Source: Candidatus Micrarchaeota archaeon
GTDB taxonomy: Archaea; Micrarchaeota; Micrarchaeia; Anstonellales; Bilamarchaeaceae
Assembly: GCA_964434735.1 (NCBI GenBank)
Contig: CAYSWK010000001.1
Coordinates: forward strand, 2,537-66,536
Length of the DNA: 64,000 nucleotides
Reading direction: 5' to 3'
Shown: positions 18,008-62,507 of the stretch, in pieces
Layout: every line of letters starts with the position of its first letter
Numbering within the stretch: position 1 is the first letter of the stretch
Notes under the pieces: model-generated
The model's input: only the letters and a program-made list of their open reading frames with translations
Told to the model about the DNA's origin: nothing
Database searches by the model: none
Position numbers and translations under genes: made by a program

Positions 18008-19240
18008 ATGTCTAACCTTGAGCACGAGCTCGCCCAATTTGGGATTCGCCCAGGTCTTGAGCGTATGGAAAAGTTAATGCTGGCACTTGGAAATCCCCAT
18101 AAAAAGCTCAAGGTCATTCTAGTCACCGGAACAAACGGAAAAGGCAGCACTACATCTTATATTGCAAGTATCCTAAAAGAAACAGGATATACGGTCGGAT
18201 CATATTTTTCCCCACATCTTATAGATAATACTGAAAGAATAAAAATAAACGGAATTGACATTTCAAAAAATAAATTTAATGAATATGAAAAAATGCTTCT
18301 TGCACTCCATTCAAAAGGACAAGAAATGACGCTTTTTGAAGCACTTACCGCCATGGCATATATGCATTTTGTCAAAAATAACTGCGAATATGCGATTATG
18401 GAAATAGGGATGGGTGGGACTTATGATGCAACAAACCTTTCACAAGAAATTGCCTCAGTAATTACTACTATTGACTTCGACCATATGCAATACCTTGGAA
18501 AAACAATTGAAGAAATAACAAAGGATAAAGCAGGCATAATAAAAAGTTCAAAATTATGTGTAACGGGCACAACAGGTAAAGCTCTTGAAATAATAAAAGC
18601 AAAAACACATACTTTGGGTATTGAACTTTCAGTTATTGGCGAAACAATTCATATTTCAAACATACAAACCTATCCATCAAAAACGAGATTTGATTACCAA
18701 GGAAAAAATTCAATTAAAGGTATTGAAACCTCACTTGCCGGAGATTACCAGGCAAAAAATGCCGCACTTGCAATTGCCCTATGTGAACGAATAGAACGAG
18801 TCGATGAATCCTCAATACGAAAAGGAATCAAAAATGCGCAAAATCAAGGGCGCATGCAAATATTGCAAACAAAACCGTATGTTGTGCTTGATGGTGCTCA
18901 CAATCCAGAAGGAATACGTGTCCTTGTAAACAACCTGGGAATGTATGCTGCTAAAAAAATTATAGTCGTCTTTGGAGTTATGAAGGATAAGGATTGGAGA
19001 GAAATGATAAAAATTCTTGAACCAAATGTTAATGAATTTATTATAACTATGCCACACCTAGAACGCGCTGAAGATCCAAATATACTTGCAAAAGAGATAA
19101 TAAAACCCAAAAAAATAATAGAAAAAAGTGATGACGCCCTGAGGTATGCAATTCAACACGCAAACGAAAACGACCTTATTCTCGTGTGCGGCAGCCTTTA
19201 TTTGGTAGGGGAAATACTAACAAAAATCAAAACTATTTAG
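18008..19240 (+). CDS. folC: Mur-ligase-family protein, folylpolyglutamate synthase/dihydrofolate synthase-like
   Basis: VTGTNGKGST P-loop, DGAHNPEG motif; about 410 aa. Confidence 0.75.
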   Translation: MSNLEHELAQFGIRPGLERMEKLMLALGNPHKKLKVILVTGTNGKGSTTSYIASILKETGYTVGSYFSPHLIDNTERIKINGIDISKNKFNEYEKMLLALHSKGQEMTLFEALTAMAYMHFVKNNCEYAIMEIGMGGTYDATNLSQEIASVITTIDFDHMQYLGKTIEEITKDKAGIIKSSKLCVTGTTGKALEIIKAKTHTLGIELSVIGETIHISNIQTYPSKTRFDYQGKNSIKGIETSLAGDYQAKNAALAIALCERIERVDESSIRKGIKNAQNQGRMQILQTKPYVVLDGAHNPEGIRVLVNNLGMYAAKKIIVVFGVMKDKDWREMIKILEPNVNEFIITMPHLERAEDPNILAKEIIKPKKIIEKSDDALRYAIQHANENDLILVCGSLYLVGEILTKIKTI

Positions 19241-21367: not shown

Positions 21368-22645
21368 TTGGAAACCCCATTGGAAAAACCGATTTGGGAT
21401 AAGTTACTTGATAGAAACACTAGTTCTAAGGAAGTTTTAGAAAAGGTAAAACAAATTCTTGAAAATATTAAAACTCGAGGATTTGAGGCTGTCAAAGAGT
21501 ATACGAAACGATTTGACGGGATAGAACGGGAATCTTTTGAAGTTCCAAAAAAAGAGATGCAAACTGCACTTAATGGCTTAACTGTTGAAGAACGCAAATG
21601 CATCGAACGCTCAATTGCTTCGGTTCGCGCAATCTGCCTTGAAGAAAAGAAAAATATCAAAAATACGGAACTCAATATGCAAGACTCCAAAACCCTCTTG
21701 CGCTATCTTCCGCTTGCCAAAGTAGGAATATACGTCCCAGCAGGCAAGGCACCGCTCCCAACTTCAGTAATCATGGCTTCAATTCCAGCACAAGTTGCAG
21801 GAGTAAAAGAGCTTATTCTTTGCTCACCTCCGCAAAAAGACGGGCAGGTAAACAAATACATACTTGCAACTGCAGCGCTTTGTGGAGTTACAAAAGTATA
21901 TGCTATTGGCGGAGCACAGGCAATAGGTGCATTGGCATATTGTTTTAATGTTGATTTGATTGCTGGACCAGGAAATGTATACGTGAGTGCTGCAAAACAG
22001 ATCGTACAAAGCCAAGGTGCATGCACGATAGATATGTTAGCTGGACCTTCAGAGGTTCTAGTCGTCTTAGAGTCTGTTGGAAACCCGAAACTGGATGCCG
22101 AAAACTGTCGCTTGGCAGCAAGCGACATGCTTGCTCAAGCTGAACACGGGCCCACATCTGCAGCAGTTTGCATTACTACTAGCAAGGAACTTGGGCAAAA
22201 AGTAAGGGAAGAAGTTGAAAAACAGCTTAATGCGCTTAAAGACCAAACTCCTCGCGAATCCATTAGATTGTACGGAACTGCAATTGTTACAAAGAGTATG
22301 CAGGAAGCAATTTCCCTTGCAAACGAATTTGCTGCAGAACACGTTGAAATATTTGCAAAGGATGCAAAAAAATACGCAATGCAAATTACGAATGCAGGCG
22401 CAATATTTGTCAATACTGCAGAAGTGTTTGGAGACTACGGGTTTGATTCAAGCAACCACATCTTGCCCACGGGGAGATCTGCCAGGTTTGCAAGTGGAGT
22501 AAGCATCCAAACATTCATGAAAAGGCAGTACGTAAAAATCGCAAATGCTGCAGCACAGGCAAAATGGGCAGAGGACTGCGCAAGATTTGCACGAATGGAA
22601 CAATTGGAAGCTCACGCCAAGTCTGCAGAATGCAGACAGTTTTGA
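21368..22645 (+). CDS. hisD: Histidinol dehydrogenase (apparent TTG start)
   Basis: ILENIKTRGFEAVKEYTKRFDG, SPPQKDG, DMLAGPSEVLV and AQAEHGP are HisD motifs. There is no in-frame ATG upstream, so the ORF begins at TTG 21368. Confidence 0.9.
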   Translation: METPLEKPIWDKLLDRNTSSKEVLEKVKQILENIKTRGFEAVKEYTKRFDGIERESFEVPKKEMQTALNGLTVEERKCIERSIASVRAICLEEKKNIKNTELNMQDSKTLLRYLPLAKVGIYVPAGKAPLPTSVIMASIPAQVAGVKELILCSPPQKDGQVNKYILATAALCGVTKVYAIGGAQAIGALAYCFNVDLIAGPGNVYVSAAKQIVQSQGACTIDMLAGPSEVLVVLESVGNPKLDAENCRLAASDMLAQAEHGPTSAAVCITTSKELGQKVREEVEKQLNALKDQTPRESIRLYGTAIVTKSMQEAISLANEFAAEHVEIFAKDAKKYAMQITNAGAIFVNTAEVFGDYGFDSSNHILPTGRSARFASGVSIQTFMKRQYVKIANAAAQAKWAEDCARFARMEQLEAHAKSAECRQF

Positions 22646-22672
22646 GTTCAGGATCTTGAGTCTTAAAAAAAG

Positions 22673-24352
22673 GTGGAAAAAATGATTAATGATATTATAC
22701 GCCAAGAAATACGCAACATGAACCCCTATGTGGGAGGAGAAACTACAGAAGTAGAGGTTAAACTCAACCAAAATGAGTCCCCTTACAATTTGCCAGAACC
22801 GATTCTTGCCAAGATACAGGAAAGGCTTGCTAACGTAAAATTTAACCGCTATAACGAAGGTTCACTCAAGCGTTTGCGAGAGTTAACTGCACAAATGTAC
22901 GGCCTTGATGCAGACCAAGTAATGTACGGTTGCGGGATAGATGAGATATTCTATTATATTATTCTTACATTTGTAGGCAAAGAAGAAAAAATAGTACGAC
23001 CTACGCCGAGCTTTGCAATGTATGAAATTTGCGCGCAAGTTGCGGGAGCAAAGGACGTGCCAGTTGCACTTGATACAAATTTCGAACTAACCGATGAATT
23101 CATAAAACAAAGCAAAGATGCAAAACTCACCTTTATTTGCAGGCCAAATGCACAAACCGGCAATTCGTGGGATAAAAAAACAATAGAACAAATTGTCAAA
23201 AATACAAAAGGAATAGTGTGCATTGACGAGGCATATGCGGAATTTGCGCAAGATGATTGCCTGGATCTTCTCAAATATGAAAACGTAATCCTTGTTCGTA
23301 CCTTTTCAAAGGCATATTTGGCAGCAGGAGTACGATTAGGATATGCTTTGGCAAGCAAGGAAGTCATTGCATACATGAATAGGGTGCGGCTGCCCTGGAA
23401 CGTCGGAGCTTTGCCACAGGTTGTTGGAGAGGTTATTCTTGAAAACCAACAAGTATTCAAGGAAAAAGTAGCTGAAATAAAGGAAAACCGCAAAGAGCTG
23501 TTTGAAGCACTCAAACTACGGACCAAGGTATTACCCACCCAAACCAATTTCATGTCATTTAAGGTAAGCGACCCAAAAGGTTTTTGCAAAACACTTAAAG
23601 AAACAGGAATTCTAGTTCGAAATGTAAGCAGCTACCCTGGCCTTGAAGGATATGTACGCGTAACCGTTGGAACGAAAAGGGAAAATGAACAGTTCCTCAA
23701 AGCATTTGACCAAGTGCAATTCAAACCAATTGACTCGATCATTTTTGATGTTGATGGGGTTCTCGTTGATGTTTCGAAATCATACCGTGAAGCAATCAAA
23801 TTGACCGTTGGACAGTTTAGAGGGACAAATGCAACTGATGAAGAAATTGAAAACATAAAGAAAAAACCAAACTCAAACAACGATTGGGTTGTCACATACG
23901 CACTTGCAACAGATTATACGGGAGAATTGTCAAAATTAGACCGAACAAATGCCAAATACCTTGAAATGAAGGAAGCATTTCAAAAATTCTACTTAGACGG
24001 ACTTATCGACAAGGAAGAAATTTATATGGATAAAGCCTATGTGCGGGCGATTCTTAAAAAAGGATTAAAGATCGGAGTTGTTACGTCGCGTCCACGTTTT
24101 GAAGCGTTGTACGTGCTTAAGCGAATTGGAGGGTTTGATGAGCAGTTCGTTATGGCACAGGAAGATTGCACCGAGGAAAAGCCATCGCCAAAGCCGATCA
24201 ATGAACTAGTCGCAAAAATGAAGGTAAAAAACCCGGCATATATAGGTGACACAATCAATGACAGGCTTGCTGCAGAACGTGCAGGAGTTCGGTACGAGGA
24301 AGTAAACAAAACACAAGACGTAAACGATATTTTAAAGAGGTTATTGAAATGA
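22673..24352 (+). CDS. hisC: Histidinol-phosphate aminotransferase fused to a C-terminal HAD-superfamily phosphatase domain
   Basis: The first roughly 350 aa form a class-II aminotransferase (SFSKAY PLP-lysine region). Residues about 355-559 start [11 protein letters not shown] (HAD motif I DxD), followed by VVTSRP (motif II) and [11 protein letters not shown] (motif IV). Confidence 0.85.
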
Positions 24353-24933
24353 GAACTGCAAAAATTGAAAGAAAAACAAAGGAAACGGAAATTTCACTTG
24401 AACTGAATTTGGACGGTACGGGTAAAAATAATATCAATACGGGAGTAGGCTTCCTTGACCACATGCTTACGCTTTTTTCAAAGCACTCACTCATTGACCT
24501 CACTGTTAATGCAAAGGGCGATTTGGAAGTTGATGATCACCACACTGTTGAGGACATAGGTATTTGCTTAGGCGAAGCCATTGCAAAGGCAACGGGAGAT
24601 AAGAAAGGGGTCAAAAGATATGGCTTTTTCCTTCTTCCAATGGACGAGTCCCTTGGCCAAGTTGCACTTGACTTAGCTGGAAGAACCTCCTTTGTGTACA
24701 ATGCTGTGTTTGAACGGGAAAAAGTAGGTGAACTCAGCACTGAACTGATCAAGGATTTCTTTTACGCAATTGCGCTTAATGCCAAAATGAACCTCAATAT
24801 CAAAATTGAGGGTGAAAACAATCACCACAAGTCAGAGGCAATGTTCAAGGCGTTTGCACGCGCTTTGCGTATGGCAGTGGAAATTGATGACCGAGTAAAA
24901 AATGACATTCCTTCAACAAAAGGAACATTATAG
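24349..24933 (+). CDS. hisB: Imidazoleglycerol-phosphate dehydratase
   Basis: [16 protein letters not shown] and GFLDHML, the typical IGPD N-terminus; overlaps the hisC stop (ATGA). Confidence 0.9.
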
Positions 24934-25767
24934 GTGATACTAATGAAAATTGCAATTCCCAACAAGGGAAGATTATATGAAGATGCTGTAAAGGAACTAG
25001 CGGCAATTGGGATTGTGTTTCCAAGCAATGGCCGAAAACTTTACACAAGTACAAGCCAACCAAATATACAAATAGTTCTATTGCGGGCTCAAGATATTCC
25101 TTGGTATGTAGCAAGTGGATCCGTAGAACTTGGAATTACGGGTACAGACATGATTGAGGAAAGCGATGTCACGGTAACTAAGATTCTTGATCTTGATTTT
25201 GGCAAATGCAAAATAGCTTTAGCTGCACAAAAAGGAACGAAAATTGCGAATTTTGACAAAATTGCAACTAAACTTACCAATATTGCCAAGAAATGGATCG
25301 CAAAAAAGAAATTGAATGCACAAGTTATTCCTCTTTCAGGAGCGCTTGAGTTTGCACCTTTTGCAGGTGTTGCACCTGCAATAATTGACCAGGTTTCAAC
25401 GGGCGACACGTTGCGCGAAAATAACCTTGAAGTAATCGAAGTTATTTTTGAATCCAATGCCTGCCTCATAACTAAAAACAAAACAAGCGAGGAAATGGAA
25501 GAAATAAAAATGGCATTACAAAGCGTTATGCTTGCCAGGAAAAAAATGTATATTATGCTCAACGTAACTAATGAAGAAAAACTTTCGGCAGTTGTACGAG
25601 TACTTCCTTGTCTTGAAAGCCCTACGGTGATAAAACTTGCCAAACCTGGAGAATACGCCGTGCACTCAGTTGTTGATTCAAAAGATCTTAGCCAAACTAT
25701 GCGTACGATCTCAAAAGCTGGTGCTGAAGGCATTCTTGTAACAAAACTTGAACGGGTAGTGCTATGA
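24934..25767 (+). CDS. hisG: ATP phosphoribosyltransferase, long form
   Basis: IAIPNKGRL N-terminus, ARAQDIPWYV-like region; the 277 aa length implies a C-terminal regulatory domain. Confidence 0.9.
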   Translation: MILMKIAIPNKGRLYEDAVKELAAIGIVFPSNGRKLYTSTSQPNIQIVLLRAQDIPWYVASGSVELGITGTDMIEESDVTVTKILDLDFGKCKIALAAQKGTKIANFDKIATKLTNIAKKWIAKKKLNAQVIPLSGALEFAPFAGVAPAIIDQVSTGDTLRENNLEVIEVIFESNACLITKNKTSEEMEEIKMALQSVMLARKKMYIMLNVTNEEKLSAVVRVLPCLESPTVIKLAKPGEYAVHSVVDSKDLSQTMRTISKAGAEGILVTKLERVVL

Positions 25768-26333
25768 TCGGGATTATAGATGTAGGAAATGCCAAAAGTG
25801 TTGAAAATGCACTTGAAAAATTAGGCTATTCTAGCGTACGAACTATCGATTCTACAATCATTAGCAAGTGTAATGGAATCATACTTCCAGGAGTTGGCGA
25901 ATTTGGAACGGTAATGCAACAAATCGATCCGCTGTCGCCACTCATCAAACGATGGAAAAAACCGTTTCTTGGCATTTGTGCAGGAATGCAAGTATTGTTT
26001 GAATCAAGTGAGGAAAGCCCCAGTGTTGAAGGGCTTGGAATCATTAAAGGAAAAGTAAAAAAATTCCAAAACATACGAACTCCCCAAATAGGTTGGAATA
26101 AACTTGAAAATAGTACTAATCCGCTGCTTGGAAAAGAAGAGTATGTATATTTTGTTAATTCCTACTATTGCGTCCCGCGGGAAAAGGCAATTACTAGTAC
26201 TGCCAAATACGGAATTAACTTTGCAGCATCAATAAATAAAGAAAATTACTACGGCGTACAATTTCACCCTGAAAAAAGCGGGGAATGTGGGCTGGAGATG
26301 CTCAACAAATTCGCGAGGTTAGTAGTATGTTGA
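25764..26333 (+). CDS. hisH: Imidazole glycerol phosphate synthase, glutamine amidotransferase subunit
   Basis: IGIIDVGNAKSV, GICAGMQ (catalytic Cys), VQFHPEKS. Confidence 0.9.
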   Translation: MIGIIDVGNAKSVENALEKLGYSSVRTIDSTIISKCNGIILPGVGEFGTVMQQIDPLSPLIKRWKKPFLGICAGMQVLFESSEESPSVEGLGIIKGKVKKFQNIRTPQIGWNKLENSTNPLLGKEEYVYFVNSYYCVPREKAITSTAKYGINFAASINKENYYGVQFHPEKSGECGLEMLNKFARLVVC

Positions 26334-26986
26334 TTATTCCTGCGATCGACTTACTAGACGGAAACTGCGTACGTTTGCTCAAAGGTAAACGAGATGAGTG
26401 CACAGTCTATTCGAACAATCCGTTAGAAGTAATTAAATCCTTTAAAGAACAAGGCGCAAAACTTGTCCACATTGTAGACCTTAATGGTGCATTTGATGGT
26501 ACAATGAAGAATCTGCCAAGTATCAAAGAATTAGCAAAAGAAATTGAAATAGAAGTGGGCGGTGGAATACGAACCAAAGAAAAAATAGATCAACTAAGGG
26601 CAAGCGGAGTGAAAAGAATAATTGTAGGAACGAACCTTCCTGAATTAAAGAAATATGGAGTAATCGGTGCACTTGACTTTAAAGATGGAAAATTCGCAAC
26701 AAAAGGATGGGTTGAGACAAAAGAGGTTAATATCAAGGAACTTCTTAAAGGACTCACCGAAGTGATTGTTACTGATGTTTCAACTGATGGAATGTTAAGT
26801 GGACCAAACGTGCCTCTTATGAAAAAAATCCAAAGTTATGGCATCAACGTCATTGCTTCTGGGGGGATTGGCTCATTAGAAGATATTGCAAAACTCAAAA
26901 AAGCAGGCATAACTGGGGCAATTGTTGGAAAGGCACTTTACGAAAAAAAATTCTCACTTGAAGAGGCGATTGATTATGCTAACTAA
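26327..26986 (+). CDS. hisA: ProFAR isomerase
   Basis: MLIIPAIDLLDGNCVRLLKG and VHIVDLNGA; the start is at the internal Met. Confidence 0.9.
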   Translation: MLIIPAIDLLDGNCVRLLKGKRDECTVYSNNPLEVIKSFKEQGAKLVHIVDLNGAFDGTMKNLPSIKELAKEIEIEVGGGIRTKEKIDQLRASGVKRIIVGTNLPELKKYGVIGALDFKDGKFATKGWVETKEVNIKELLKGLTEVIVTDVSTDGMLSGPNVPLMKKIQSYGINVIASGGIGSLEDIAKLKKAGITGAIVGKALYEKKFSLEEAIDYAN

Positions 26987-27734
26987 ACGGATCATACCTT
27001 GTCTTGATGTTGCACAGGGTCGAGTAGTTAAAGGTACGAATTTTGTCAATTTGCAGGATAATGGAGATGCCGTTGAACTTGCAAAAAAGTACTATTTGGA
27101 AGGTGCAGATGAGCTATGCTTTCTTGATATTACTGCAACAGTTGAAAAAAGGAAAACGCTTCTTGAATTAGTGCAACGTGTCGCCCGTGAGATATTTATT
27201 CCATTTTCAGTTGGCGGAGGGATACGCACACTTGAAGATGCCCGTGCAGTACTGACATGCGGCGCTGAAAAGGTAGTTCTTGGAACTATAGCCATACAAC
27301 AACCTAAAATAGTACAAGAAATTGCAAAAGAATTTGGAAGCCAGGCAGCGGTTATTTCAATAGATGCAAAACGCGTAGGCAATTCTTGGAACCAGTTTAT
27401 CAAAGGCGGGCGGGAAGATTCTGGTAAAGATGTAATCAAATTTGCAAAAGAAATGGAAAACTTGGGAGCCGGAGAGATTCTGCTCAATTCAATAGATAAG
27501 GATGGCACAAAACAAGGATTTGATCTAGAACTATGCAATGCAGTTTGTAATGCCGTAAACATTCCAGTAATCGCATCAAGCGGGGCTAAGGATGCACAGA
27601 GTTTTGTTGAAATTTTCAAAAAAACACAGGTAAGTGCTGCTTTAGCTGCACGCATATTTCACACTAATGAAGTTTCGATTAGAGAGGTTAAGAAAATACT
27701 GACTAAAAACAAGGTGAACATACGTGAAATTTGA
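26976..27734 (+). CDS. hisF: Imidazole glycerol phosphate synthase, cyclase subunit
   Basis: RIIPCLDVAQGRVVKG and CFLDITAT; the start is at the internal Met MLTKRII. Confidence 0.9.
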   Translation: MLTKRIIPCLDVAQGRVVKGTNFVNLQDNGDAVELAKKYYLEGADELCFLDITATVEKRKTLLELVQRVAREIFIPFSVGGGIRTLEDARAVLTCGAEKVVLGTIAIQQPKIVQEIAKEFGSQAAVISIDAKRVGNSWNQFIKGGREDSGKDVIKFAKEMENLGAGEILLNSIDKDGTKQGFDLELCNAVCNAVNIPVIASSGAKDAQSFVEIFKKTQVSAALAARIFHTNEVSIREVKKILTKNKVNIREI

Positions 27735-28302
27735 TAAAAAAGGACTCATTCCAATGATTATTCAAGATGCTAAAACAAGGGAAGTACTTTCACTTGTCTA
27801 TGGAAATAAAGAATCCATACAAAAAATGAAAGAGACAAGATTTGTATGGCGATACTCTCGTTCAAAAAAACGAATTATGCAAAAGGGTGAAGAATCCGGA
27901 AATGTTCAAAAAGTAGTCTCAATTGTTGAAGACTGCGATTCAGACGCACTGCTTGTACTAGCTCAACCATCGGGGCCGGCATGCCACAAAGGCACAGGAA
28001 GCTGTTTTAGTGATGCTATAACTAGTTTAGAATCAGACACGTTAGAAAAACTAGAGCAGATAATTGAAAATCGGATCAAGAATCCTAAAGAAGGGAGCTA
28101 TACTGCTAAATTGGCTGGTAATGGCGCACTCCTCAACGGCAAGTTACGTGAGGAACTGTATGAATTCATATACTTTAAGGACAAGGACAATCTGAATTGG
28201 GAAATGGCTGACCTTTTGTACTTCATGCTCGTACTCTTGAAAAAAAACGAGGGAAGCTTAAAAGAGGTTAAAGAAAAGCTGCAAGAACGGATGAAGATCT
28301 AA
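27724..28302 (+). CDS. hisI: Bifunctional phosphoribosyl-AMP cyclohydrolase / phosphoribosyl-ATP pyrophosphatase
   Basis: The N half (GLIPMIIQD...CDSDALLVLAQPSGPACHKGTGSCF) is HisI. The C half (LEKLEQIIENR...) is HisE. Confidence 0.85.
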   Translation: MKFDKKGLIPMIIQDAKTREVLSLVYGNKESIQKMKETRFVWRYSRSKKRIMQKGEESGNVQKVVSIVEDCDSDALLVLAQPSGPACHKGTGSCFSDAITSLESDTLEKLEQIIENRIKNPKEGSYTAKLAGNGALLNGKLREELYEFIYFKDKDNLNWEMADLLYFMLVLLKKNEGSLKEVKEKLQERMKI

Positions 28303-39907: not shown

Positions 39908-39979
39908 TGCGCTCGCCGGGATTTGAACCCGGGTCAGTGGATTGGAAGTCCACGATCCTAACCGCTAGACTACAAGCGC
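39908..39979 (-). tRNA. tRNA-Gly (anticodon UCC)
   Basis: Reverse complement GCGCUUG-UA-GUCUAGCGGUUAGGAUC-GUGGA-CUUCCAA-UCCAC-UGAC-CCGGGUUCAAAUCCCGG-CGAGCGC-A is a canonical cloverleaf with no intron. Confidence 0.85.
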
Positions 39980-40723: not shown

Positions 40724-40744
40724 AGTGTGTTTTATTGCCAGGAT

Positions 40745-40840
40745 CGCATAATCCGGTAGTGCGTCAGTCTCGAAAACAATTATCGTGTAAACTGATCCGT
40801 AAGGATTGTAGGTTCAAATCCTACTCCTGGCGTTTTTCTT
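40745..40840 (+). tRNA. tRNA-Ser (anticodon CGA) with a 15-nt intron at the canonical 37/38 position
   Basis: Acceptor GCCAGGA/UCCUGGC, anticodon stem UCAGU...ACUGA interrupted by CUCGAAA plus a 15-nt insert, long variable arm UCCGUAAGGA, T-arm GUAGG-UUCAAAU-CCUAC, followed by a T-run. Confidence 0.7.
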
Positions 40841-40850: not shown

Positions 40851-40942
40851 AATGTATTGCATATAACAACCAAATAACATTTTTTGATGAAACTTTTTCT
40901 CTAAAGTTTCTTTGATTAAAAACTCTTAGCAAGAAAGTTTAT

Positions 40943-41093
40943 GCCACTGTAACTCAGCGGTAGAGTGCCTCTCTCGTAAATCGGTTTTAAATTTCGAGTT
41001 GGGCGTTTCGTCTCAAAAAACGAAACGCAACACGGAAAACGATCAACCGATCAGGACAGGAGGAAGTCAGGAGTTCAAATCTCCTCTGTGGCT
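40943..41093 (+). tRNA. tRNA-Thr (anticodon CGU) with a 79-nt intron at 37/38
   Basis: Acceptor GCCACUG/CUGUGGC (one U-U), D-arm ACUC-AGCGGUA-GAGU, anticodon stem CCUCU/GGAGG, loop CUCGUA|A split by a 79-nt insert (40979-41057), T-arm AGGAG-UUCAAAU-CUCCU. Confidence 0.65.
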
Positions 41094-51798: not shown

Positions 51799-52875
51799 TC
51801 ACCCACCTAATGAACTAAGACTGGATGTAAGCGCTTGCGAAACAAGGAAAAATATCGCATAACCCAGTAGAAGAAGGAACGGGAAATACTTAATCCCCTC
51901 ATTTTTGGTCCCTTTCTTGATAACCCCGACGATAAATGAGGAAAACAAGCACGTCATGGCAATTGTAACGAGCGAAAAAACAAAGAATTCGCTCGATTTT
52001 ATGATGATCTCTGCCCCTCCTGAAATCCCGCCAAATTGACCGAAAAAGCTTCCGCCCGATGCGGTTGCCGCGGGGAAGTTTGCCTTTTGCTTTTCAAACA
52101 CTTCAATAAGCTTTCCTGCAACAGCAAGCAAAAAGGGCGCACCTGCACCCGCTGCAAACAAAATGAATATTTCGTACAGCACAAGGTTGGCTGCAACTTC
52201 GCGCTTAAGGACAACGCTTTCACGAACGTCAGATGAAGTTCGTTCAAGAACTGACGTAACCTCGCCTCCCGTTGCGATTGCCTGCTTAAGAAGCGACATG
52301 GTCCGAGTAAATATTTTTGAATCAAACCGTGTGCCGAGCTCATCAAGTGCGTCATCAAGGTTCTGACCGCTAAAAGACTGTTGGATCGTTCCGCGCACTT
52401 CTTTGGCCAATGACCCGAATTCGGGCTTTGCCGCATACCATAAAGACTGATCAAGAGTCATGCCTGCCTTAACGTTTGCAGATACGAGCAAAAGAAAATC
52501 GGGCAATAGGACTTCCAATTCGTGGGTTCGTTGATCTTTTCTTAGGCTAAGCGTTGCTTCTGCAATTAATTTGATGAACCAAAAGCTGATCCCAAAACAA
52601 ACTGCGGCAGCAACAAGGTACACAAGAACGTCGGGCGGCTGAGGTATAAACCCTGAAACGAACGATCTCCATGCTAAAAACAACCCCTGGTTTGAAATAG
52701 ATTCAAACGTCGCACCAAGGCCGGCAAGAACTGTAACCAAGAATAAGTAACCAAGAAACGCATCAACGGGGACCTTAAGCCCAGCCGAATAGATAAGACG
52801 TTCCGTCACTTTTGACTTTTCCTTTGAATACACTGTTCTTCCTATGAGTTCAAAAACGCTGTTCATGAGTTGCAC
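51799..52875 (-). CDS. Type II secretion system F-domain membrane protein (TadC/FlaJ-like)
   Basis: LPDFLLLVSANVKAGMTLDQSL T2SSF-domain signature; polytopic. Confidence 0.7.
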   Translation of the reverse strand: MQLMNSVFELIGRTVYSKEKSKVTERLIYSAGLKVPVDAFLGYLFLVTVLAGLGATFESISNQGLFLAWRSFVSGFIPQPPDVLVYLVAAAVCFGISFWFIKLIAEATLSLRKDQRTHELEVLLPDFLLLVSANVKAGMTLDQSLWYAAKPEFGSLAKEVRGTIQQSFSGQNLDDALDELGTRFDSKIFTRTMSLLKQAIATGGEVTSVLERTSSDVRESVVLKREVAANLVLYEIFILFAAGAGAPFLLAVAGKLIEVFEKQKANFPAATASGGSFFGQFGGISGGAEIIIKSSEFFVFSLVTIAMTCLFSSFIVGVIKKGTKNEGIKYFPFLLLLGYAIFFLVSQALTSSLSSLGG

Positions 52876-53733
52876 CTATATGATGAATTTCGGTCTTGAG
52901 CTTTCGATCAATCCTAAGAAAAGGAACTGAACGATACCTACCATCACAAGAACATACCATAATATGTTCCCTGAAATTCCCAATTTGCCTCCGCTGATTA
53001 CCGAAAGAAGGACGGTTGCAAGGACAATGCCGATTACCGGAAGGATAATACCAAAAATCATGAAAAACATCACAAACGGAGTAAGTTTTGATCCGTATTC
53101 CTTAAGCTGTATGACTTGTTCACGCGAAATTTGATCGAGTACCGCTTCGAGTGAATCTGCAACGTTTGCACCGGATGTAAGTGAATTTGCAATCTGCACC
53201 GTTATGCGGGTGAAATACCGTGAAGGATTGTTCTGGGCAACATCACGAAGCGTATCGGCAGTTGATTTACCCAAAGCAATCTGATCAACTACTCGATTAA
53301 ATTCCTTACTGACTTCACCGTACCCTTTGGAAACTCCTACAAGCGAATTGAAAAGGGGCATACCGCTTTTGAGTGCAATGCCGATATGCCTTCCTGCAAA
53401 AAGAATTTCATAATCCATTTCACGCTTTCTTTGAATTGCCTTTAATTGGGGGTAACGTACCCAATAATTAAACATGAAAAAAGGAATAATGAGTAAACCT
53501 GGAAGAATAAGCACGGGAGAAAGAGGAATCGCAATAATGCCTAAAACAAGCAGGAACAACAAAAGAGCCGAATATTGGATAGTTACAAGAATGACCGTCT
53601 CAAGAAATTGAGCGGGAGTCTTATTTATATCCGCAAGCGCAAGCTTAAGACGAAGGTCTGGAAAAGAACCTTGAAGCCGTTCGGCAAGAGCGGTGAGTGT
53701 TGAACGTTTTTCAGAGTGTGTTTTTTCATCCAT
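52876..53733 (-). CDS. Type II secretion system F-domain membrane protein (TadB-like)
   Basis: FAGRHIGIALKSGMPLFNSL and VQIANSLTSGANVADSL, T2SSF-like; 285 aa. Confidence 0.65.
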   Translation of the reverse strand: MDEKTHSEKRSTLTALAERLQGSFPDLRLKLALADINKTPAQFLETVILVTIQYSALLLFLLVLGIIAIPLSPVLILPGLLIIPFFMFNYWVRYPQLKAIQRKREMDYEILFAGRHIGIALKSGMPLFNSLVGVSKGYGEVSKEFNRVVDQIALGKSTADTLRDVAQNNPSRYFTRITVQIANSLTSGANVADSLEAVLDQISREQVIQLKEYGSKLTPFVMFFMIFGIILPVIGIVLATVLLSVISGGKLGISGNILWYVLVMVGIVQFLFLGLIESSRPKFII

Positions 53734-55166
53734 TATGAATCCTCTCCAAAGTATGAGCGTATTGATTTATCCGAAATACCCTTTTCCTGGGCAACAAGCA
53801 CGCGCGCTTTAGTAAGTGCCTCATGCTTGCTTAACTTCTTAAGTTGATACTTTTTATACGTTGACGCATCATGTGCAAGAAGATAGTTAAGCAGTTCCTG
53901 CTCGTCCATCTGCTTAATCTCCTGAAGGTTTTTAGTATCATCTGAAGAAGGAGAATTGGTCGCTTCAAGGCCGCTCTCCATGATGGACTCGAACTTTTTC
54001 TCAAGAGAATCCTTTGCCTCCGCGAGGATAGATGCGTATTTTTTGGTCTTTTTCTGCTCCTCTGCGATTTTTTTAGCAAGCGGATCATTGCTTTCCAATT
54101 TTGAAAGAACGGCATTGAGTTCTTGAAGATGCTTTTGTTCAAGAAGCTGAGAATACTGTTCAATAGTTGGCTCAATTTGGGCACTGATTGCCGTAATCTT
54201 TTTTATGAATGACTCATGCTGCTCTTTTGAGGCGTTCTGGTTTTTCATATCCGCAACTGCTGCATAAAACGAATCACGCGTCTGAGATAAACGATCCTCA
54301 AACTGCCTGATGATGTGCTCTTTTGCAGAACCGAGCTCTTCGGATTGGGATTTGAGCATACCATCAAGCATAAGTGCAACGTCTCCTTCCTTTCTTCGTT
54401 TCGTTTCAGTCTGTGAAAGAAGATCTTTAATGACGGAAATTTCGCTTTTAATCTCGTTTCTGCGAGAAGTATTCGTTTCCTTGAAAAGGGATTTTGTCAG
54501 CTCAAGCATTTTCTTTTTCAATGCCGTATTGTCTAGATCCGCGTATTTCTGATGGGCCTGGGACTGAGATTCGATTTTCTTTTCAACGTCTTCCTCTTTT
54601 TGCGGCAATTTGACGATAACGGGAGGCTCAGGCACGACTTCTTCTTGAACCTTTTGCGAAGGCAAAGGTTGTTCTTCAATTACCTTTAATGGAGGTTGTG
54701 AAACTTCCTTGCTAGGAGCAGACTCGACAGACTTTTCAAAAATAGAATCAGATGAAGGCTCCAGATTCTCCACTGTGGGAGTTTCTTTTGAAGACTCATC
54801 ATGCGTCATCTTTTCAAAAGTAAGAGAAGAATCAACGGGTGCCTTTTGCATCTCTTCTTTTATCGCGCTTGCGTCTTCGAGCGATTTTGAAGTGATATTC
54901 ATTACGTTTTTTACCACTTCTTCGGTTTTCTTAGTATCCTCAACGGTTTTTGCAGGTTTTGCAACACCAAGCAATTTCTGGGTTGAAAGAATCTTTCCGA
55001 TCCTTTCATAGGAATTGATAAGATCGTTGTAAGTATAGGCAGCATATTCATCAGGACTCAAGTCTACACTATGATTGAGTACTACTTCGTCTTTATAGGA
55101 TTTACTCCCAAGTGCCTGTTTTGAAATAGAACGAATGATATTTTGTGCATCTTCAAATTCGGTCAT
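53733..55166 (-). CDS. Coiled-coil/low-complexity protein of unknown function within the pilus locus
   Basis: 477 aa, Ser/Glu/Lys-rich, predicted coiled coil in the C-terminal half; no TM and no family recognised. Confidence 0.4.
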   Translation of the reverse strand: MTEFEDAQNIIRSISKQALGSKSYKDEVVLNHSVDLSPDEYAAYTYNDLINSYERIGKILSTQKLLGVAKPAKTVEDTKKTEEVVKNVMNITSKSLEDASAIKEEMQKAPVDSSLTFEKMTHDESSKETPTVENLEPSSDSIFEKSVESAPSKEVSQPPLKVIEEQPLPSQKVQEEVVPEPPVIVKLPQKEEDVEKKIESQSQAHQKYADLDNTALKKKMLELTKSLFKETNTSRRNEIKSEISVIKDLLSQTETKRRKEGDVALMLDGMLKSQSEELGSAKEHIIRQFEDRLSQTRDSFYAAVADMKNQNASKEQHESFIKKITAISAQIEPTIEQYSQLLEQKHLQELNAVLSKLESNDPLAKKIAEEQKKTKKYASILAEAKDSLEKKFESIMESGLEATNSPSSDDTKNLQEIKQMDEQELLNYLLAHDASTYKKYQLKKLSKHEALTKARVLVAQEKGISDKSIRSYFGEDS

Positions 55167-56694
55167 AACTGAAATCCCACTCCATATTTTTCTTTACTCG
55201 TTCCATGACCTTTTCAGGCTCCACATAATAATGTGAAACAATGGAACCGACCTGATCGACAGAATCATAATTTTTTGCAACCATCCAATTAAGGATGGAT
55301 GTTTTTTCAACAATATCGGATTGAATTTCCTTAGGGGAAAGCCCTGCGTACAGTTCAAGCAATTCTTCAAGACGTTGCATTTGCCCAACTTCGCGCGTCT
55401 TGTCGCTTTTGAAATCCCATCGATATAACGTATTATACTGCCCCTTGCGCTGCATTTCGGAAAATTCAAGCGTACGGCGAATATTAAATCGCCTATGCCT
55501 GAACTGGACAATAATTCCTCCTAGTGCATCGAGCATCTGAACAGGAACGTTGATGGGTGGATTAGTAAGACGTGAAATTGCCTGCTCGGTGTTGTCAGCA
55601 TGCACGGTTGCATAAACTGAATGCCCCGTATGCATAGCCTCGAAAAGAATTTCTGCCTCCCTTTGACGACGAACTTCGCCTACAAGGATACGGTCAGGAC
55701 GTTGACGCAATGCGTTAACCATAAGGTCAAGCATGGTAATTTCACCCTTGCCCTCAGGATTTGCTTCCCGCGTAACCATAGGAACCCAATGGAGAAACTT
55801 TGGAAGCGTAAGCTCGCGCGTATCTTCAATGCTGATAATACGTTGGTTTGCAGGAATAAACGCAGCCATGGCATTAAGAAAAGAAGTTTTACCAGAACCC
55901 GTTCCACCTGCAACCAAAAGTGAAAGCTCGTTTTGAACACAAAGCCAAATAAGTCCTGCAACCTCAGGAGAGACGGATTTTGCTTTTACAAACCGGCTCA
56001 TGGTCCAAGGATTTTTTGAGAACTTTCTGATCGTCATAGTGTTGCCAAACTGAGAGATAGGAAAGAGCGTTGCGTTGACACGGTCTCCGCTTGGAAGGTG
56101 TGCGTCAAGCATAGGGTTTAAGACGTTTATTTGCCTCCCTACCTTTCGTGCAATCATTGACGAATAATCATAAATTGCGTCTTCTGTTTTGAGCTTGACA
56201 TTCGTTTTGCACCAGCCATATTTCTTATGGTAAACCCATGCCGGGTCATGTGCATTATTCACAACAACTTCTTCTAAGCGCTCATCACCCAAAAACGTCT
56301 GCAATTGGCCAAGTTCAAGAGTATTTTGAAGCAAATATGCTGCAAGAATATTTCGTTTTTCCTCTGAAAGCTTAGCAAAATTTTTAACAAGAATCTTGTG
56401 CGCACCTTCAAGGAATTTTGCCTTAACTTCATGGTATTTGTTAGGATCAAGAATTTCATTTATGTCCAAACGAACAGTTGAGATAAGTTCTCCCTTCAGA
56501 CGGTCAAGGATAAGTTTCGTTCCAAATTCAATGCCTGGAATAGTTGCTTCATAATAAGGGACAAAATCCCCGCGAGTAAGAATTCTTACTTCTACCGTGA
56601 CACCTTCCGCCTTGAAAACGTATTGCTCAAGAACTGTCTCATGAATTGGTTGTTTTTGCCGATCAAGTTCCGGCGGAACGTCTGAAGACTCCAT
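55153..56694 (-). CDS. Type II/IV secretion ATPase (FlaI/TadA/VirB11-like)
   Basis: Walker A LVAGGTGSGKTSFLNA, ISIEDTRELTLP, His-box region EAMHTGHSVYATVHAD. Confidence 0.85.
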   Translation of the reverse strand: MESSDVPPELDRQKQPIHETVLEQYVFKAEGVTVEVRILTRGDFVPYYEATIPGIEFGTKLILDRLKGELISTVRLDINEILDPNKYHEVKAKFLEGAHKILVKNFAKLSEEKRNILAAYLLQNTLELGQLQTFLGDERLEEVVVNNAHDPAWVYHKKYGWCKTNVKLKTEDAIYDYSSMIARKVGRQINVLNPMLDAHLPSGDRVNATLFPISQFGNTMTIRKFSKNPWTMSRFVKAKSVSPEVAGLIWLCVQNELSLLVAGGTGSGKTSFLNAMAAFIPANQRIISIEDTRELTLPKFLHWVPMVTREANPEGKGEITMLDLMVNALRQRPDRILVGEVRRQREAEILFEAMHTGHSVYATVHADNTEQAISRLTNPPINVPVQMLDALGGIIVQFRHRRFNIRRTLEFSEMQRKGQYNTLYRWDFKSDKTREVGQMQRLEELLELYAGLSPKEIQSDIVEKTSILNWMVAKNYDSVDQVGSIVSHYYVEPEKVMERVKKNMEWDFSYDRI

Positions 56695-56763
56695 GGCACC
56701 ACTCGAGGTAATAAAGGTGCCGACATTTAAAAACATGGTGGTGAGGCAACGAAGGCCAGCTAG

Positions 56764-60571: not shown

Positions 60572-61348
60572 ATGCAACTTATCAATTATCGCCCTCATAG
60601 TAGCTTTCTTCGACCCCCCAGTCAAACGATAGAAAAAACCTATTCACGTTTGGGGATTACAGAAAATTTTATACGGGATATTAAGTATGAAAATAGGGAG
60701 GAACTTATGCGTGCGCTCCAAAAAAGACACGGGGTTTCACGTGATTTAGCGCGCAGATTACGAAAAAATTTTGATAAAGAATATCAAAAACGTGAAGGAG
60801 AAGTTTTTCTTGAATCCCGAGCAAAGGAAATCGAAAGAATACGGGAAAAACTGACACGTGAAAGAAGAGCTGAGGTTGCGCCTTGCATACTGCATGATTC
60901 TGAAGTAGAGTGGGTAACAAGCATACAAGGACATGAAAATTTTGACGGAATTATGAATATTCATGAACGCGTAGTTCGCGCCTTTGGTGGACTAAGGGAT
61001 TTAGGAGGCGTACGTACCATACCTGACGGGAACTATGCTCAAGATGAAGTAGTGTACACTACTTTTCAAAGAATACTCGATGTACTTGGAATAACCTCTT
61101 CGGAGGAACTTACCGTATTTCTTGACAGATTTTTGCTTGTTGGACCTGAAGAATGGGGATTACGGTCCATACATATGGGCATAATATATGAGGATGTGCC
61201 CGTTGAACTCCAATTTAGGACCATGCAAATGGATTTCTTTGCAAAAACACGATTATTACGAAAAGGATTAGACAAACCTGAACAAGGACTTACTGAAATA
61301 AATTATAGGGAACGAATGCGTGCAAAACAAACAGAGTTTTTAGAATAA
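60572..61348 (+). CDS. RelA/SpoT-domain nucleotidyltransferase (small-alarmone-synthetase-like)
   Basis: DLGGVRTIPDG (DxxGxR), LRSIHMGIIYEDVPVELQFRTMQMDFFAKTR (compare the YRSLH / EIQIRT..mH.WAE synthetase motifs), preceded by a roughly 100 aa Arg/Lys/Glu-rich helical region. Confidence 0.7.
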   Translation: MQLINYRPHSSFLRPPSQTIEKTYSRLGITENFIRDIKYENREELMRALQKRHGVSRDLARRLRKNFDKEYQKREGEVFLESRAKEIERIREKLTRERRAEVAPCILHDSEVEWVTSIQGHENFDGIMNIHERVVRAFGGLRDLGGVRTIPDGNYAQDEVVYTTFQRILDVLGITSSEELTVFLDRFLLVGPEEWGLRSIHMGIIYEDVPVELQFRTMQMDFFAKTRLLRKGLDKPEQGLTEINYRERMRAKQTEFLE

Positions 61349-61452
61349 AAAACGTTCTGATTAACGAGTACGCCAATTCACGCATTTTTCATAATACAAA
61401 ACTAGATCAAAACTGACTGCTGGAAACTCGAAACGATAAAAGGATCATGATA

Positions 61453-61669
61453 TGCGTCTGCCGGGATTCGAACCCGGGTCGCAAGCTGTTTCCAGAAATC
61501 AAATTAATTTCTTTGAAACTTTTTGATGAAACTTTTTTCCAAAAAGTTTCTTGGGAAGCTCGAATCCTACCGTCGTCCAAACGTCTTGACCATTCGTATC
61601 CTACGGGTTTTGATTAAACTTTTTCCCGCATGTATATACTGGTCAAAAAGTTTACTAGACTACAAACGC
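61453..61669 (-). tRNA. tRNA-Gly (anticodon CCC) apparently interrupted by two introns (about 82 nt in the D-loop and about 64 nt adjacent to the anticodon loop)
   Basis: The reverse complement gives a 5' exon GCGUUUG-UA-GUCUAG at 61655-61669. The internal exon CGGUAGGAUU-CGAGC-UUCCCAA matches tRNA-Gly(UCC) in this window. The 3' exon is GCUUG-CGAC-CCGGGUUCGAAUCCCGG-CAGACGC-A. The acceptor GCGUUUG/CAGACGC pairs at 7 bp, and the anticodon stem CGAGC/GCUUG pairs. Confidence 0.55.
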
Positions 61670-61709
61670 ATTCGTATCATCTTATATTTAGGATGATTTT
61701 AAAAGAAAT

Positions 61710-62507
61710 ATGGGAAGAACCCATAAGAGGCCTAAGATTACGATGACATGGATTAGAGTTAACATATTACGCACGAGTGTAAACGAAGTTACTGAAAAAC
61801 TGACTTCGCAGGGCTTTACGGTTACGCAAAGTGAATTTCTCCCCTATGCACTCGAGGTAACGGGAGAAACGCAAGTAGCAAAAACCGTTGAACACCAACG
61901 CGGGTTTTTCTACATTCAAAGCCTTGCAAGCCAAATGGTTGCCCACGTGCTTAATCCTACGGAAAATGACCAAATCATAGATTTATGTGCTGCTCCTGGA
62001 AGCAAAACAACTCATCTTTCAATGCTCCTTAACAATACGGGGGCAATCCTTGCAAATGACGAGAGTTTCCTTCGGTTACGATCATTAGGTGCAAACATAG
62101 ACCGCATGGGGTGTACAAACATCGCAATGGTCAATTACAAGGGCCAATTCCTTCGAACGACCATGGTTCCTGATAAGGTACTTGTTGATGCGCCCTGCAG
62201 CGGAAAGGGAACCAAAAGCCCCATGGAATTTTCAGAAAATAGGCTTTCGCAGCTTGCAAAGCTACAAAAAAAACTCATCGTACGCGGATTTGACCTACTC
62301 AAACCAGGTGGAACATTAGTATACTCAACATGCACAACCACTGAAAAGGAAAACGAAGAGGTCGTAAATTATGTATGCAGCAAACGGGAGAACGCACAAA
62401 CGGTAAAACCAAACCTCCCTTGCGACTTTGAATTCAACATTGGTGCACGTATAAAACTTGATGAGCAATTCTTCATCGCGTGTATAAAAAAAGGTGAAAC
62501 TGCATGA
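61710..62507 (+). CDS. NOL1/NOP2/Sun-family RNA cytosine-C5 methyltransferase
   Basis: DLCAAPGSKT (SAM motif I), DAPCSGKG (motif IV Pro-Cys), TLVYSTCT (motif VI TC). Confidence 0.8.
   Translation: MGRTHKRPKITMTWIRVNILRTSVNEVTEKLTSQGFTVTQSEFLPYALEVTGETQVAKTVEHQRGFFYIQSLASQMVAHVLNPTENDQIIDLCAAPGSKTTHLSMLLNNTGAILANDESFLRLRSLGANIDRMGCTNIAMVNYKGQFLRTTMVPDKVLVDAPCSGKGTKSPMEFSENRLSQLAKLQKKLIVRGFDLLKPGGTLVYSTCTTTEKENEEVVNYVCSKRENAQTVKPNLPCDFEFNIGARIKLDEQFFIACIKKGETA

Follow-up and report, generated by a model that had tools for sequence, protein, structure and literature searches.

A tRNA-Gly(CCC) gene in three exons with two probable bulge-helix-bulge introns in a Micrarchaeota-like archaeon

The tRNA-Gly(CCC) locus and its splice motifs

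We analyzed a 64-kb stretch of contig CAYSWK010000001.1 (the whole of which we call the window) and in particular a segment of 217 nucleotides (nt) on its minus strand, at positions 61453 to 61669, which holds a tRNA-Gly(CCC) gene in three collinear exons of 15, 21, and 35 nt. An earlier note on this DNA had proposed three exon blocks that assemble into such a tRNA, separated by inserts of about 82 and 64 nt; exactly three blocks were found, and the inserts measure 82 and 64 nt. Exon 1 (61655 to 61669, minus strand; GCGTTTGTAGTCTAG) runs from G1 to G15 and provides the 5' strand of the acceptor stem, U8 and A9, the 5' strand of the D-stem (GUCU), and A14 and G15. Intron 1 (61573 to 61654, minus strand; 82 nt) follows at D-loop position 15/16. 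Exon 2 (61552 to 61572, minus strand; CGGTAGGATTCGAGCTTCCCA) spans C16 to A37 and contains the remainder of the D-loop, the 3' strand of the D-stem (GGAU), the 5' strand of the anticodon stem (CGAGC), and the loop UUCCCA with the anticodon CCC. Intron 2 (61488 to 61551, minus strand; 64 nt) lies at the canonical position 37/38. Exon 3 (61453 to 61487, minus strand; AGCTTGCGACCCGGGTTCGAATCCCGGCAGACGCA) extends from A38 to the discriminator A73 and supplies the 3' strand of the anticodon stem, the variable loop, the T-arm, and the 3' strand of the acceptor stem; CCA is not encoded. The boundary between exon and intron 1 is unambiguous at 15/16, and that of intron 2 is ambiguous by 1 nt at an A/A repeat (37/38 or 38/39). 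With this ambiguity indicated, the blocks are written GCGTTTGTAGTCTAG, CGGTAGGATTCGAGCTTCCCA(A), and (A)GCTTGCGACCCGGGTTCGAATCCCGGCAGACGCA.

Joined together, the exons form a 71-mer that ARAGORN called as tRNA-Gly(CCC) with a regular cloverleaf, which evaluates at -22 kcal/mol. Direct reading of the spliced 71-mer identified U8, A14, G15, G18G19, U33, the anticodon CCC, A37, and the discriminator A73, together with the G53-C61 pair, the T-loop TTCGAAT, and the acceptor pairs G1-C72, C2-G71, and G3-C70. The anticodon stem had been described in the earlier note as nearly identical to that of the tRNA-Gly(UCC) gene at 39908 to 39979, which proved wrong: the two anticodon stems are unrelated.

The gene is flanked by candidate transcription signals on both sides. 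Upstream, a 26-nt block (TTCTTTTAAAATCATCCTAAATATAA; 61682 to 61707, minus strand) carries A/T boxes at about -35 to -28 and -21 to -13 from G1 and is, by its position and A/T-box content, the putative promoter of tRNA-Gly(CCC). Downstream, the 3' trailer (TATCATGATCCTTTTATCGTTTCGAGTTTC; 61424 to 61452, minus strand) includes a T-run at 61436 to 61442. Archaeal RNA polymerase terminates at oligo-T, and this run is likely the terminator of the gene. A split or permuted tRNA gene was rejected, given that the exons follow one another in order on a single strand, all inside 217 nt, with one promoter block and one T-run. Self-splicing group I or group II introns were likewise set aside: no Rfam intron family matched 61200 to 61950 at an E value of 10 or better, and inserts of 64 to 82 nt are far too short for such introns.

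We evaluated the splice sites for bulge-helix-bulge (BHB) motifs in strict register, using the A-I pair rule, by which helix H forms between intron bases -6 to -3 and the four exon bases that precede the final two, and the cut in each bulge falls after the second base. The earlier note had treated a failure to form BHB-like motifs, together with an intact tRNA-Gly(CCC) elsewhere, as a mark of a disrupted gene; such motifs form at both junctions, in the register dictated by the exon ends. At intron 1, GUCU (61660 to 61657) pairs with GGAC (61578 to 61575) at 4/4 positions of helix H, the bulges are AG/U and GA/C (the slash marks the cut), and a flanking helix h' of 4 bp (AAAC/GUUU) is present, with no helix h. 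The motif is thus a relaxed BHB of the HBh' type. Its 5' site sits in a closed 3-nt bulge backed by the intron helix, and its 3' site sits in an open loop; h' extends into a rod-like helix, and the minimum free energy (MFE) fold and the constrained fold both give a long intron helix. At intron 2, the anticodon stem serves as h (5 bp), UUCC (61557 to 61554) pairs with GGAA (61493 to 61490) at 4/4 positions of helix H, and the bulges are CA/A and AC/A; h' amounts to only 1 bp (G-U) in strict register, and the motif is a relaxed BHB of the hBH type. Here it is the 3' site that lies in a closed bulge, with the 5' site at a junction and a 10-bp hairpin directly after it. The alternative register at 38/39 was rejected, with helix H at 2/4 and no flanking helices. 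Since intron 2 forms a BHB only in the 37/38 register, the sole noncanonical intron is the one at 15/16. A noncanonical position is therefore supported for the first intron and not for the second.

The same test was applied to the window's two Rfam-confirmed introns, both at the canonical position, as controls. The 15-nt intron of tRNA-Ser(CGA) gave h of 6 bp, H at 3/4, and h' of 1 bp, and the 79-nt intron of tRNA-Thr(CGU) gave h of 5 bp, H at 3/4, and h' of 7 bp. At random window positions, helix H at 4/4 together with a flanking helix of at least 4 bp occurred with a frequency of 0.0008. A fold of the precursor enforcing both BHBs, the acceptor stem, and the T-arm reached -65.3 kcal/mol, compared to an unconstrained MFE of -70.0 kcal/mol, and the local BHB folds lay above the local MFE by 1.4 kcal/mol (intron 1) and 0.7 kcal/mol (intron 2). 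The fold of the whole precursor had a z score of -5.6 relative to shuffled sequences.

Conservation in relatives and the case for a functional gene

The tRNA gene is arranged head-to-head with an RsmB/NSUN-type RNA m5C methyltransferase gene (61710 to 62507, plus strand). The start of this gene is likely the ATG at 61743, matching a 254-amino-acid (aa) protein of a relative, and a 73-nt divergent promoter spacer is shared with the tRNA gene. The sole close relative of the methyltransferase was protein P0001 on L009, a 2.3-kb Logan contig (90% aa and ~80% nt identity). This contig, from a sister species (SRA run SRR8426596), carries a tRNA-Gly(CCC) gene at the equivalent place (L009 1144 to 1415, minus strand). 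The methyltransferase counterpart there occupies L009 1489 to 2253, and a further one was found on the Micrarchaeia contig L011 (3001 to 3795). In L009, a glyoxalase/bleomycin-resistance-family gene (643 to 1026) stands between a conserved upstream gene and the tRNA gene; it is absent from the window, a one-gene indel.

The exons of the two tRNA-Gly(CCC) genes are identical at 68 of 71 positions (96%). Exons 1 and 2 do not differ at all, and the three differences, all in exon 3, include one that turns G28-U42 into a G-C pair and one that gives rise to a U6-U67 mismatch. The introns are far less alike: intron 1 is 62% identical (78 nt in L009) and intron 2 is 58% identical (79 nt in L009). Nevertheless, the bases that build the BHBs (helix H and the bulges) are unchanged, with H at 4/4 for intron 1 and h of 5 bp and H at 4/4 for intron 2. 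Helix h' of intron 1 measures 8 bp in L009, and its pairing is kept through two double changes, A-U to G-C and C-G to A-U. All 26 nt of the putative promoter block are identical in the window and L009, against only ~60% identity in the introns, and the trailer is nearly identical. The conservation of exons, splice motif, promoter, and trailer while the intron interiors drift is as expected under purifying selection on a working, spliced gene and the reverse of the expectation for a pseudogene.

The L009 gene has in addition a third intron of 44 nt, at position 59/60, which the window gene lacks. It forms a BHB in which the T-stem serves as h (5 bp), with H at 3/4, bulges AA/U and UU/U, and h' of 4 bp; the 60/61 and 61/62 registers were rejected, as a BHB forms at 59/60 only. 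The presence of this intron in L009 and its absence from the window show ongoing intron gain or loss in the lineage. A 12-mer in the window trailer (AGTTTCCAGCAG; 61417 to 61428, minus strand) recurs without change where the third intron of L009 begins, and the trailer segment GUUUCCAG has perfect complementarity, over 8 bp, with CUGGAAAC at the 3' end of intron 2, a segment that includes the BHB strand GGAA. These trailer matches could reflect an origin of the 59/60 intron by local duplication, or a competing pairing.

Among more distant relatives, L011, whose neighbor protein is 46% identical, carries a tRNA-Gly(UCC) gene beside the same methyltransferase gene (in the region L011 2429 to 3001, minus strand), with introns at 37/38 (47 nt) and 59/60 (29 nt), both with H at 4/4. 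Next to it, in this region, lies a tRNA-Val(CAC)-like gene whose halves are more than 300 nt apart, separated by an insert; a tRNA on contig L014 is similarly bloated. A scan of GTDB genomes with a degenerate 3'-exon pattern recovered eight distant DPANN tRNA-Gly genes, six of them intronless as far as the stored sequence shows and two (on L002 and L008) with an intron at the canonical position only, so that none of the eight had a D-loop intron. Neither exon 2 nor the D-loop intron junctions, each used in a scan of JGI metagenomes, gave a match. The outcomes of these scans indicate that the D-loop intron is confined, as sampled, to the clade of the window and L009.

From these results, the locus is very probably a functional tRNA-Gly(CCC) gene of a Micrarchaeota-like DPANN archaeon, interrupted by two protein-spliced BHB introns. 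It would be transcribed from the conserved A/T-rich promoter to the T-run; a broad-specificity EndA (epsilon2 or (alpha-beta)2) would cut all four sites after the second bulge base, an RtcB-type ligase would join the three exons, and CCA would be added posttranscriptionally. We infer these steps of transcription, cleavage, ligation, and CCA addition from the established archaeal tRNA splicing pathway; what we observed directly are the anatomy, the BHB geometry, the conservation, and the covariation. The alpha4 and alpha'2 forms of EndA need strict motifs at 37/38 (PMC3239211, PMC5829648), and a broad-specificity enzyme is predicted here on that account.

Several points weigh against this reading. 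The evidence for the gene and its splicing comes from sequence, folds, and comparison, and the comparison draws on a single relative on one 2.3-kb contig, where U6 and U67 are mismatched in the acceptor stem. Both motifs fall short of a strict hBHBh', with the outer h missing at intron 1 and a contiguous h' missing at intron 2. At intron 1, moreover, the unconstrained MFE fold favors a register shifted by one base (a 3x3 internal loop). EndA had no Pfam match among the ~60 window open reading frames (ORFs) scanned, and with no EndA gene in the window, the enzyme type is a prediction. Finally, the tRNA-Gly(UCC) at 39908 to 39979 might also decode GGG, in which case the tRNA-Gly(CCC) gene might be dispensable, and an intronless Gly(CCC) gene could lie outside the 64-kb window.

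The locus could instead be a disrupted pseudogene or the remnant of a mobile-element integration whose inserts are never removed, which we regard as very improbable. In its favor, standard tRNA finders make no call at the unspliced locus. ARAGORN reported three tRNAs elsewhere in the window and, with its intron option on or off, none here; Rfam at the gathering score called five other window tRNAs, two of them with introns, and missed this one; and a permissive Rfam scan of the region returned the T-arm alone, as a weak match to the transfer-messenger RNA clan. These misses are a limitation of the tools and are not evidence against the gene. Intron 1 has imperfect terminal inverted repeats of 14 nt, resembling a miniature inverted-repeat transposable element, but no target-site duplications are present. 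Both BHBs are relaxed. Precise removal of the introns restores every conserved tRNA position. Intron 1 also contains D-arm-like and leader-like 10- to 11-mers that might be read as scars of rearrangement. The partial D-arm copy reported in the earlier note is indeed there (GTAGGATACGA versus the exon's GTAGGATTCGA), but its score is reached by ~10% of shuffled introns (p 0.10) and it is absent from the L009 intron; a 10-nt segment of intron 1 that repeats the 5' leader and G1 is equaled by ~19% of shuffles (p 0.19) and is absent from L009 as well. Both are at chance level and were rejected as scars. A pseudogene would further have to account for exons that are 96% identical where the neighboring gene is 80% identical in DNA and the introns ~60%, a pattern of purifying selection on the exons, and for the conservation in L009 of a splice motif with compensatory pairs, the promoter, and the trailer.

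A core shared by the introns

The two introns of the window gene resemble each other over a 20-nt stretch (GGGAAAAAGTTTAATCAAAA versus GGAAAAAAGTTTCATCAAAA) with 18 identical positions. Their local alignment score of 16 compares to a mean of 8.3 for shuffled sequences, of which a fraction of 0.001 reach 16. Directly after the 5' splice site, each intron has a complementary arm, (T/G)AAACTTTTT, so that the shared core consists of a hairpin followed by AUCAA. In intron 1 (61610 to 61654, minus strand), the arms TAAACTTTTT and AAAAAGTTTA form 10 bp around a 20-nt loop and precede ATCAA; in intron 2 (61523 to 61550, minus strand), the arms GAAACTTTTT and AAAAAGTTTC form 10 bp around a 3-nt loop and again precede ATCAA. 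Introns 1 and 2 of L009 have the same design, with arms GAAATCTTT and AAGATTTC. A third window copy lies outside any gene (40884 to 40910, minus strand; GAAACTTT..AAAGTTTC followed by ATCAAAA), in the spacer that separates tRNA-Ser(CGA) from tRNA-Thr(CGU), on the strand opposite to these two genes. It includes a 17-nt exact match to intron 2, and 0 of 100 shuffles gave three matches.

Among these five copies, the three from the window have C-G/U-A at stem pairs 5 and 6, where the two from L009 have U-A/C-G; stem pairs 1 and 10 also covary, and the AUCAA tail is invariant. On the strength of this sequence likeness, introns 1 and 2 are paralogous and share a common hairpin-plus-AUCAA core. The core copies are more alike within a genome than between orthologues, which could result from gene conversion, from recopying, or from a constraint common to the copies, for instance pairing between their arms. 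The concerted change hints at intron copying or gene conversion.

One explanation is that the introns, including the third intron of L009, belong to a lineage-specific BHB family that is mobile or prone to copying, in which the hairpin plus AUCAA spreads or is homogenized by gene conversion and is tolerated where a BHB forms. This explanation concerns origin and dynamics and is compatible with a functional gene, and we advance it tentatively. It draws on the 20-nt core, on the hairpin maintained by covariation, on the within-genome likeness, on the extragenic copy, and on the 59/60 intron that only L009 has, and it has a precedent in the intron transposition described for Thermoproteales (Fujishima 2010, as summarized in PMC4033280 and PMC4090602). 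On the other hand, it depends on two genomes, and the concerted change can also be explained by mutual arm pairing within one precursor. Neither tRNA-Ser(CGA) nor tRNA-Thr(CGU) of the window has the core in its intron (a sample of six tRNA genes), and no copy was found in 87 kb of other DPANN loci. The version of the tRNA-Ser/tRNA-Thr spacer in the L009 lineage, sought via two neighboring proteins, was not found either; the search returned only 100%-identical contigs of the same organism.

Matches in viral sequences also bear on the extragenic copy. Scans of IMG/VR for the hairpin plus ATCAA returned a conserved coding segment and ~20 short intergenic hairpins on very AT-rich viral contigs, with no tRNA nearby. 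Hairpins with GAAACTTT..AAAGTTTC followed by ATCAAAA occur at L047 10407 to 10434, L063 419 to 446, L028 2927 to 3372, and elsewhere, several of them in metagenome-assembled genomes of giant viruses; two differ from intron 2 by a single base, and three copies lie on L028. These viral hairpins are probably convergent AT-rich palindromes, and a viral origin of the core was set aside, as the IMG/VR matches give no evidence for it. Convergence of this kind makes the extragenic copy weaker as evidence for mobility, and its relation to the introns is uncertain. The fuller claim, that the two introns (three in L009) form an active mobile BHB family, tagged by the covarying hairpin plus AUCAA, recopied or homogenized in each genome, and able to land outside tRNA genes, appears doubtful. 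If it were true, the family would be a young, sequence-tagged system for tracing transposition of archaeal tRNA introns between closely related genomes.

The core might also be functional itself, as a signal for processing or protein binding, as a promoter-like element in antisense, or as a device for pairing between the introns that would preorganize the precursor, and be kept by selection and not by copying. We consider this unlikely, more so than copying. The stem covariation and the invariant, single-stranded AUCAA tail would fit such a role, as would the rod-like fold of intron 1, in which the 3' arm and AUCAA make up, in both orthologues, an apical loop that GGG/CCC closes. Arms from one intron are complementary to those of the other over 9 to 11 nt, and the extragenic copy is located just upstream of the putative TATA region of tRNA-Thr. 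The pentamers GAAAC/GTTTC, moreover, are densest in the whole window at 61401 to 61700, in both introns and the trailer (6 per 300 nt, compared to a mean of 0.8). However, the core has no Rfam match and no sense-strand C/D boxes, other window introns do without it, and the L009 version is not TATA-like. To our knowledge, no factor that binds the hairpin-plus-AUCAA motif has been described.

The pentamers were rejected as a sign of a C/D-box small RNA, a clustered regularly interspaced short palindromic repeat, or a tandem array, with no sense-strand boxes and no arrays present; their second-densest spot, at 29.4 to 29.8 kb, falls in ordinary small ORFs. The spacer that holds the extragenic copy (40870 to 40942) has a second, degenerate core copy, TAAACTTTCTTGCTAAGAGTTTTTAATCAAAG in the minus-strand reading, which abuts the 5' end of tRNA-Thr. 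On the plus strand, this copy reads TTGATTAAAAACT and resembles the A/T box ATTTAAAAACT upstream of tRNA-Gly(UCC); it may be the promoter of tRNA-Thr.

Known systems, tRNA content, and host

Catalogues since 2003 to 2008 list archaeal tRNA genes that carry as many as three BHB introns, at many sites including the D-arm (PMC4090602, PMC12397907), and the tRNA-Gly(CCC) gene fits this known multiple-intron type in every testable feature, with two BHB introns, one of them outside 37/38 (15/16, 37/38, and 59/60 in L009). The 15/16 site is not among the intron positions listed in one review of archaeal tRNA introns. The closest comparison is "Candidatus Micrarchaeum acidiphilum" ARMAN-2, in which 56% of tRNA genes are disrupted, some by two introns and some at the 59/60 site, and which has an epsilon2 EndA of broad specificity that cuts relaxed motifs (Fujishima et al. 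2011, PMC3239211). The two share a Micrarchaeota-level neighborhood, and ARMAN-2 has both strict and relaxed (hBH/HBh') BHBs (PMC3239211). The 59/60 site is used in tRNA-Cys and tRNA-Pro of ARMAN-2 (PMC3239211), as well as in tRNA-Gly(CCC) of L009 and tRNA-Gly(UCC) of L011. In contrast to the introns of 13 to 25 nt assayed in ARMAN-2 (PMC3239211), those of the window gene are 82 and 64 nt long, and the noncanonical site is 15/16.

Thermoproteales, as summarized in two later papers (Sugahara 2008 and Fujishima 2010, via PMC4033280 and PMC4090602), likewise have up to three BHB introns per gene, rapid gain and loss, and similar introns at different tRNA positions, the last of which was read as intron transposition (Fujishima 2010). 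Compared with those accounts, the window gene belongs to another archaeal superphylum (DPANN and not Crenarchaeota), its similar introns lie within one gene and have a defined core that changes in concert, and the 64 kb showed no spread of the core into further tRNA genes. In tRNA-Thr(GGU) of Caldiarchaeum subterraneum, too, intron number differs between relatives or variants (one versus two there, two versus three here), but the gain there was linked to a 1.8-kb element that bears a recombinase and to a scattered tRNA fragment (Sugahara et al. 2012, PMC3293823), neither of which was seen here. Intron 2 resembles the canonical 37/38 introns of Marck and Grosjean (2003), as cited in PMC4090602, in that nucleotides 32 to 35 pair with -6 to -3 and the 3' site is in a 3-nt bulge beside the anticodon stem. 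It departs from the canonical hBHBh' form described there in that its 5' bulge lacks a contiguous h', and the hairpin gives a three-way junction in the constrained fold.

The layout of the gene is thus already well known in this archaeal group, and the find, though sound, comes as no surprise. The locus extends the intron catalogue of Micrarchaeota-like DPANN archaea by a D-loop site (15/16), unusually long introns, and two paralogous introns that carry a common tag. The gain, copying, and loss of BHB introns have so far been described mainly for Thermoproteales, without a known mechanism. Two species ~20% apart in DNA that differ by one intron and have paralogous introns changing in concert offer young variation for studying these processes.

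The window contains six tRNA genes, three of which have introns. Besides tRNA-Gly(CCC), five form a cluster at 39.1 to 41.9 kb: Ser(CGA), Thr(CGU), Ser(GCU), Gly(UCC), and Pro(UGG). The genes for tRNA-Ser(CGA) (40737 to 40832, plus strand; 15-nt intron) and tRNA-Thr(CGU) (40943 to 41093, plus strand; 79-nt intron), both interrupted at 37/38, were called by Rfam and not by ARAGORN. The window yielded neither a second Gly(CCC) gene nor a stray T-arm. GGG accounts for 133 of the 796 glycine codons (17%) counted in 34 window ORFs, and tRNA-Gly(CCC) is presumably needed, yet it is invisible to ARAGORN and the Rfam tRNA model. Genomes of this lineage would consequently appear to lack tRNA-Gly(CCC) unless intron-aware tools are used.

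The earlier note had taken the interrupted tRNA gene as a taxonomic clue, and the rest of the window agrees with it. Archaeal markers in the window include P0/L10 with the archaeal/eukaryotic insertion domain, L1, Nop5, V-type ATPase subunits, Alba, and SRP54, and the nearest named homologues of three window proteins are from "Candidatus Micrarchaeota"/Micrarchaeia (~40 to 63% identity). Judged by these markers and homologues, the host is a Micrarchaeota-like DPANN archaeon. Three SRA runs contain contigs that are 100% identical to the window between 39 and 45 kb. The window further encodes a pilus/archaellum-type secretion ATPase with two T2SSF-like membrane proteins (51799 to 56736, minus strand) and, separately, a Mur-ligase-family protein (18008 to 19240, plus strand). 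A near-complete histidine biosynthesis operon (21368 to 28302, plus strand) comprises hisD, a hisC-HAD fusion, hisB, hisG, hisA, hisF, and hisIE, and stands out given the metabolically reduced DPANN relatives.

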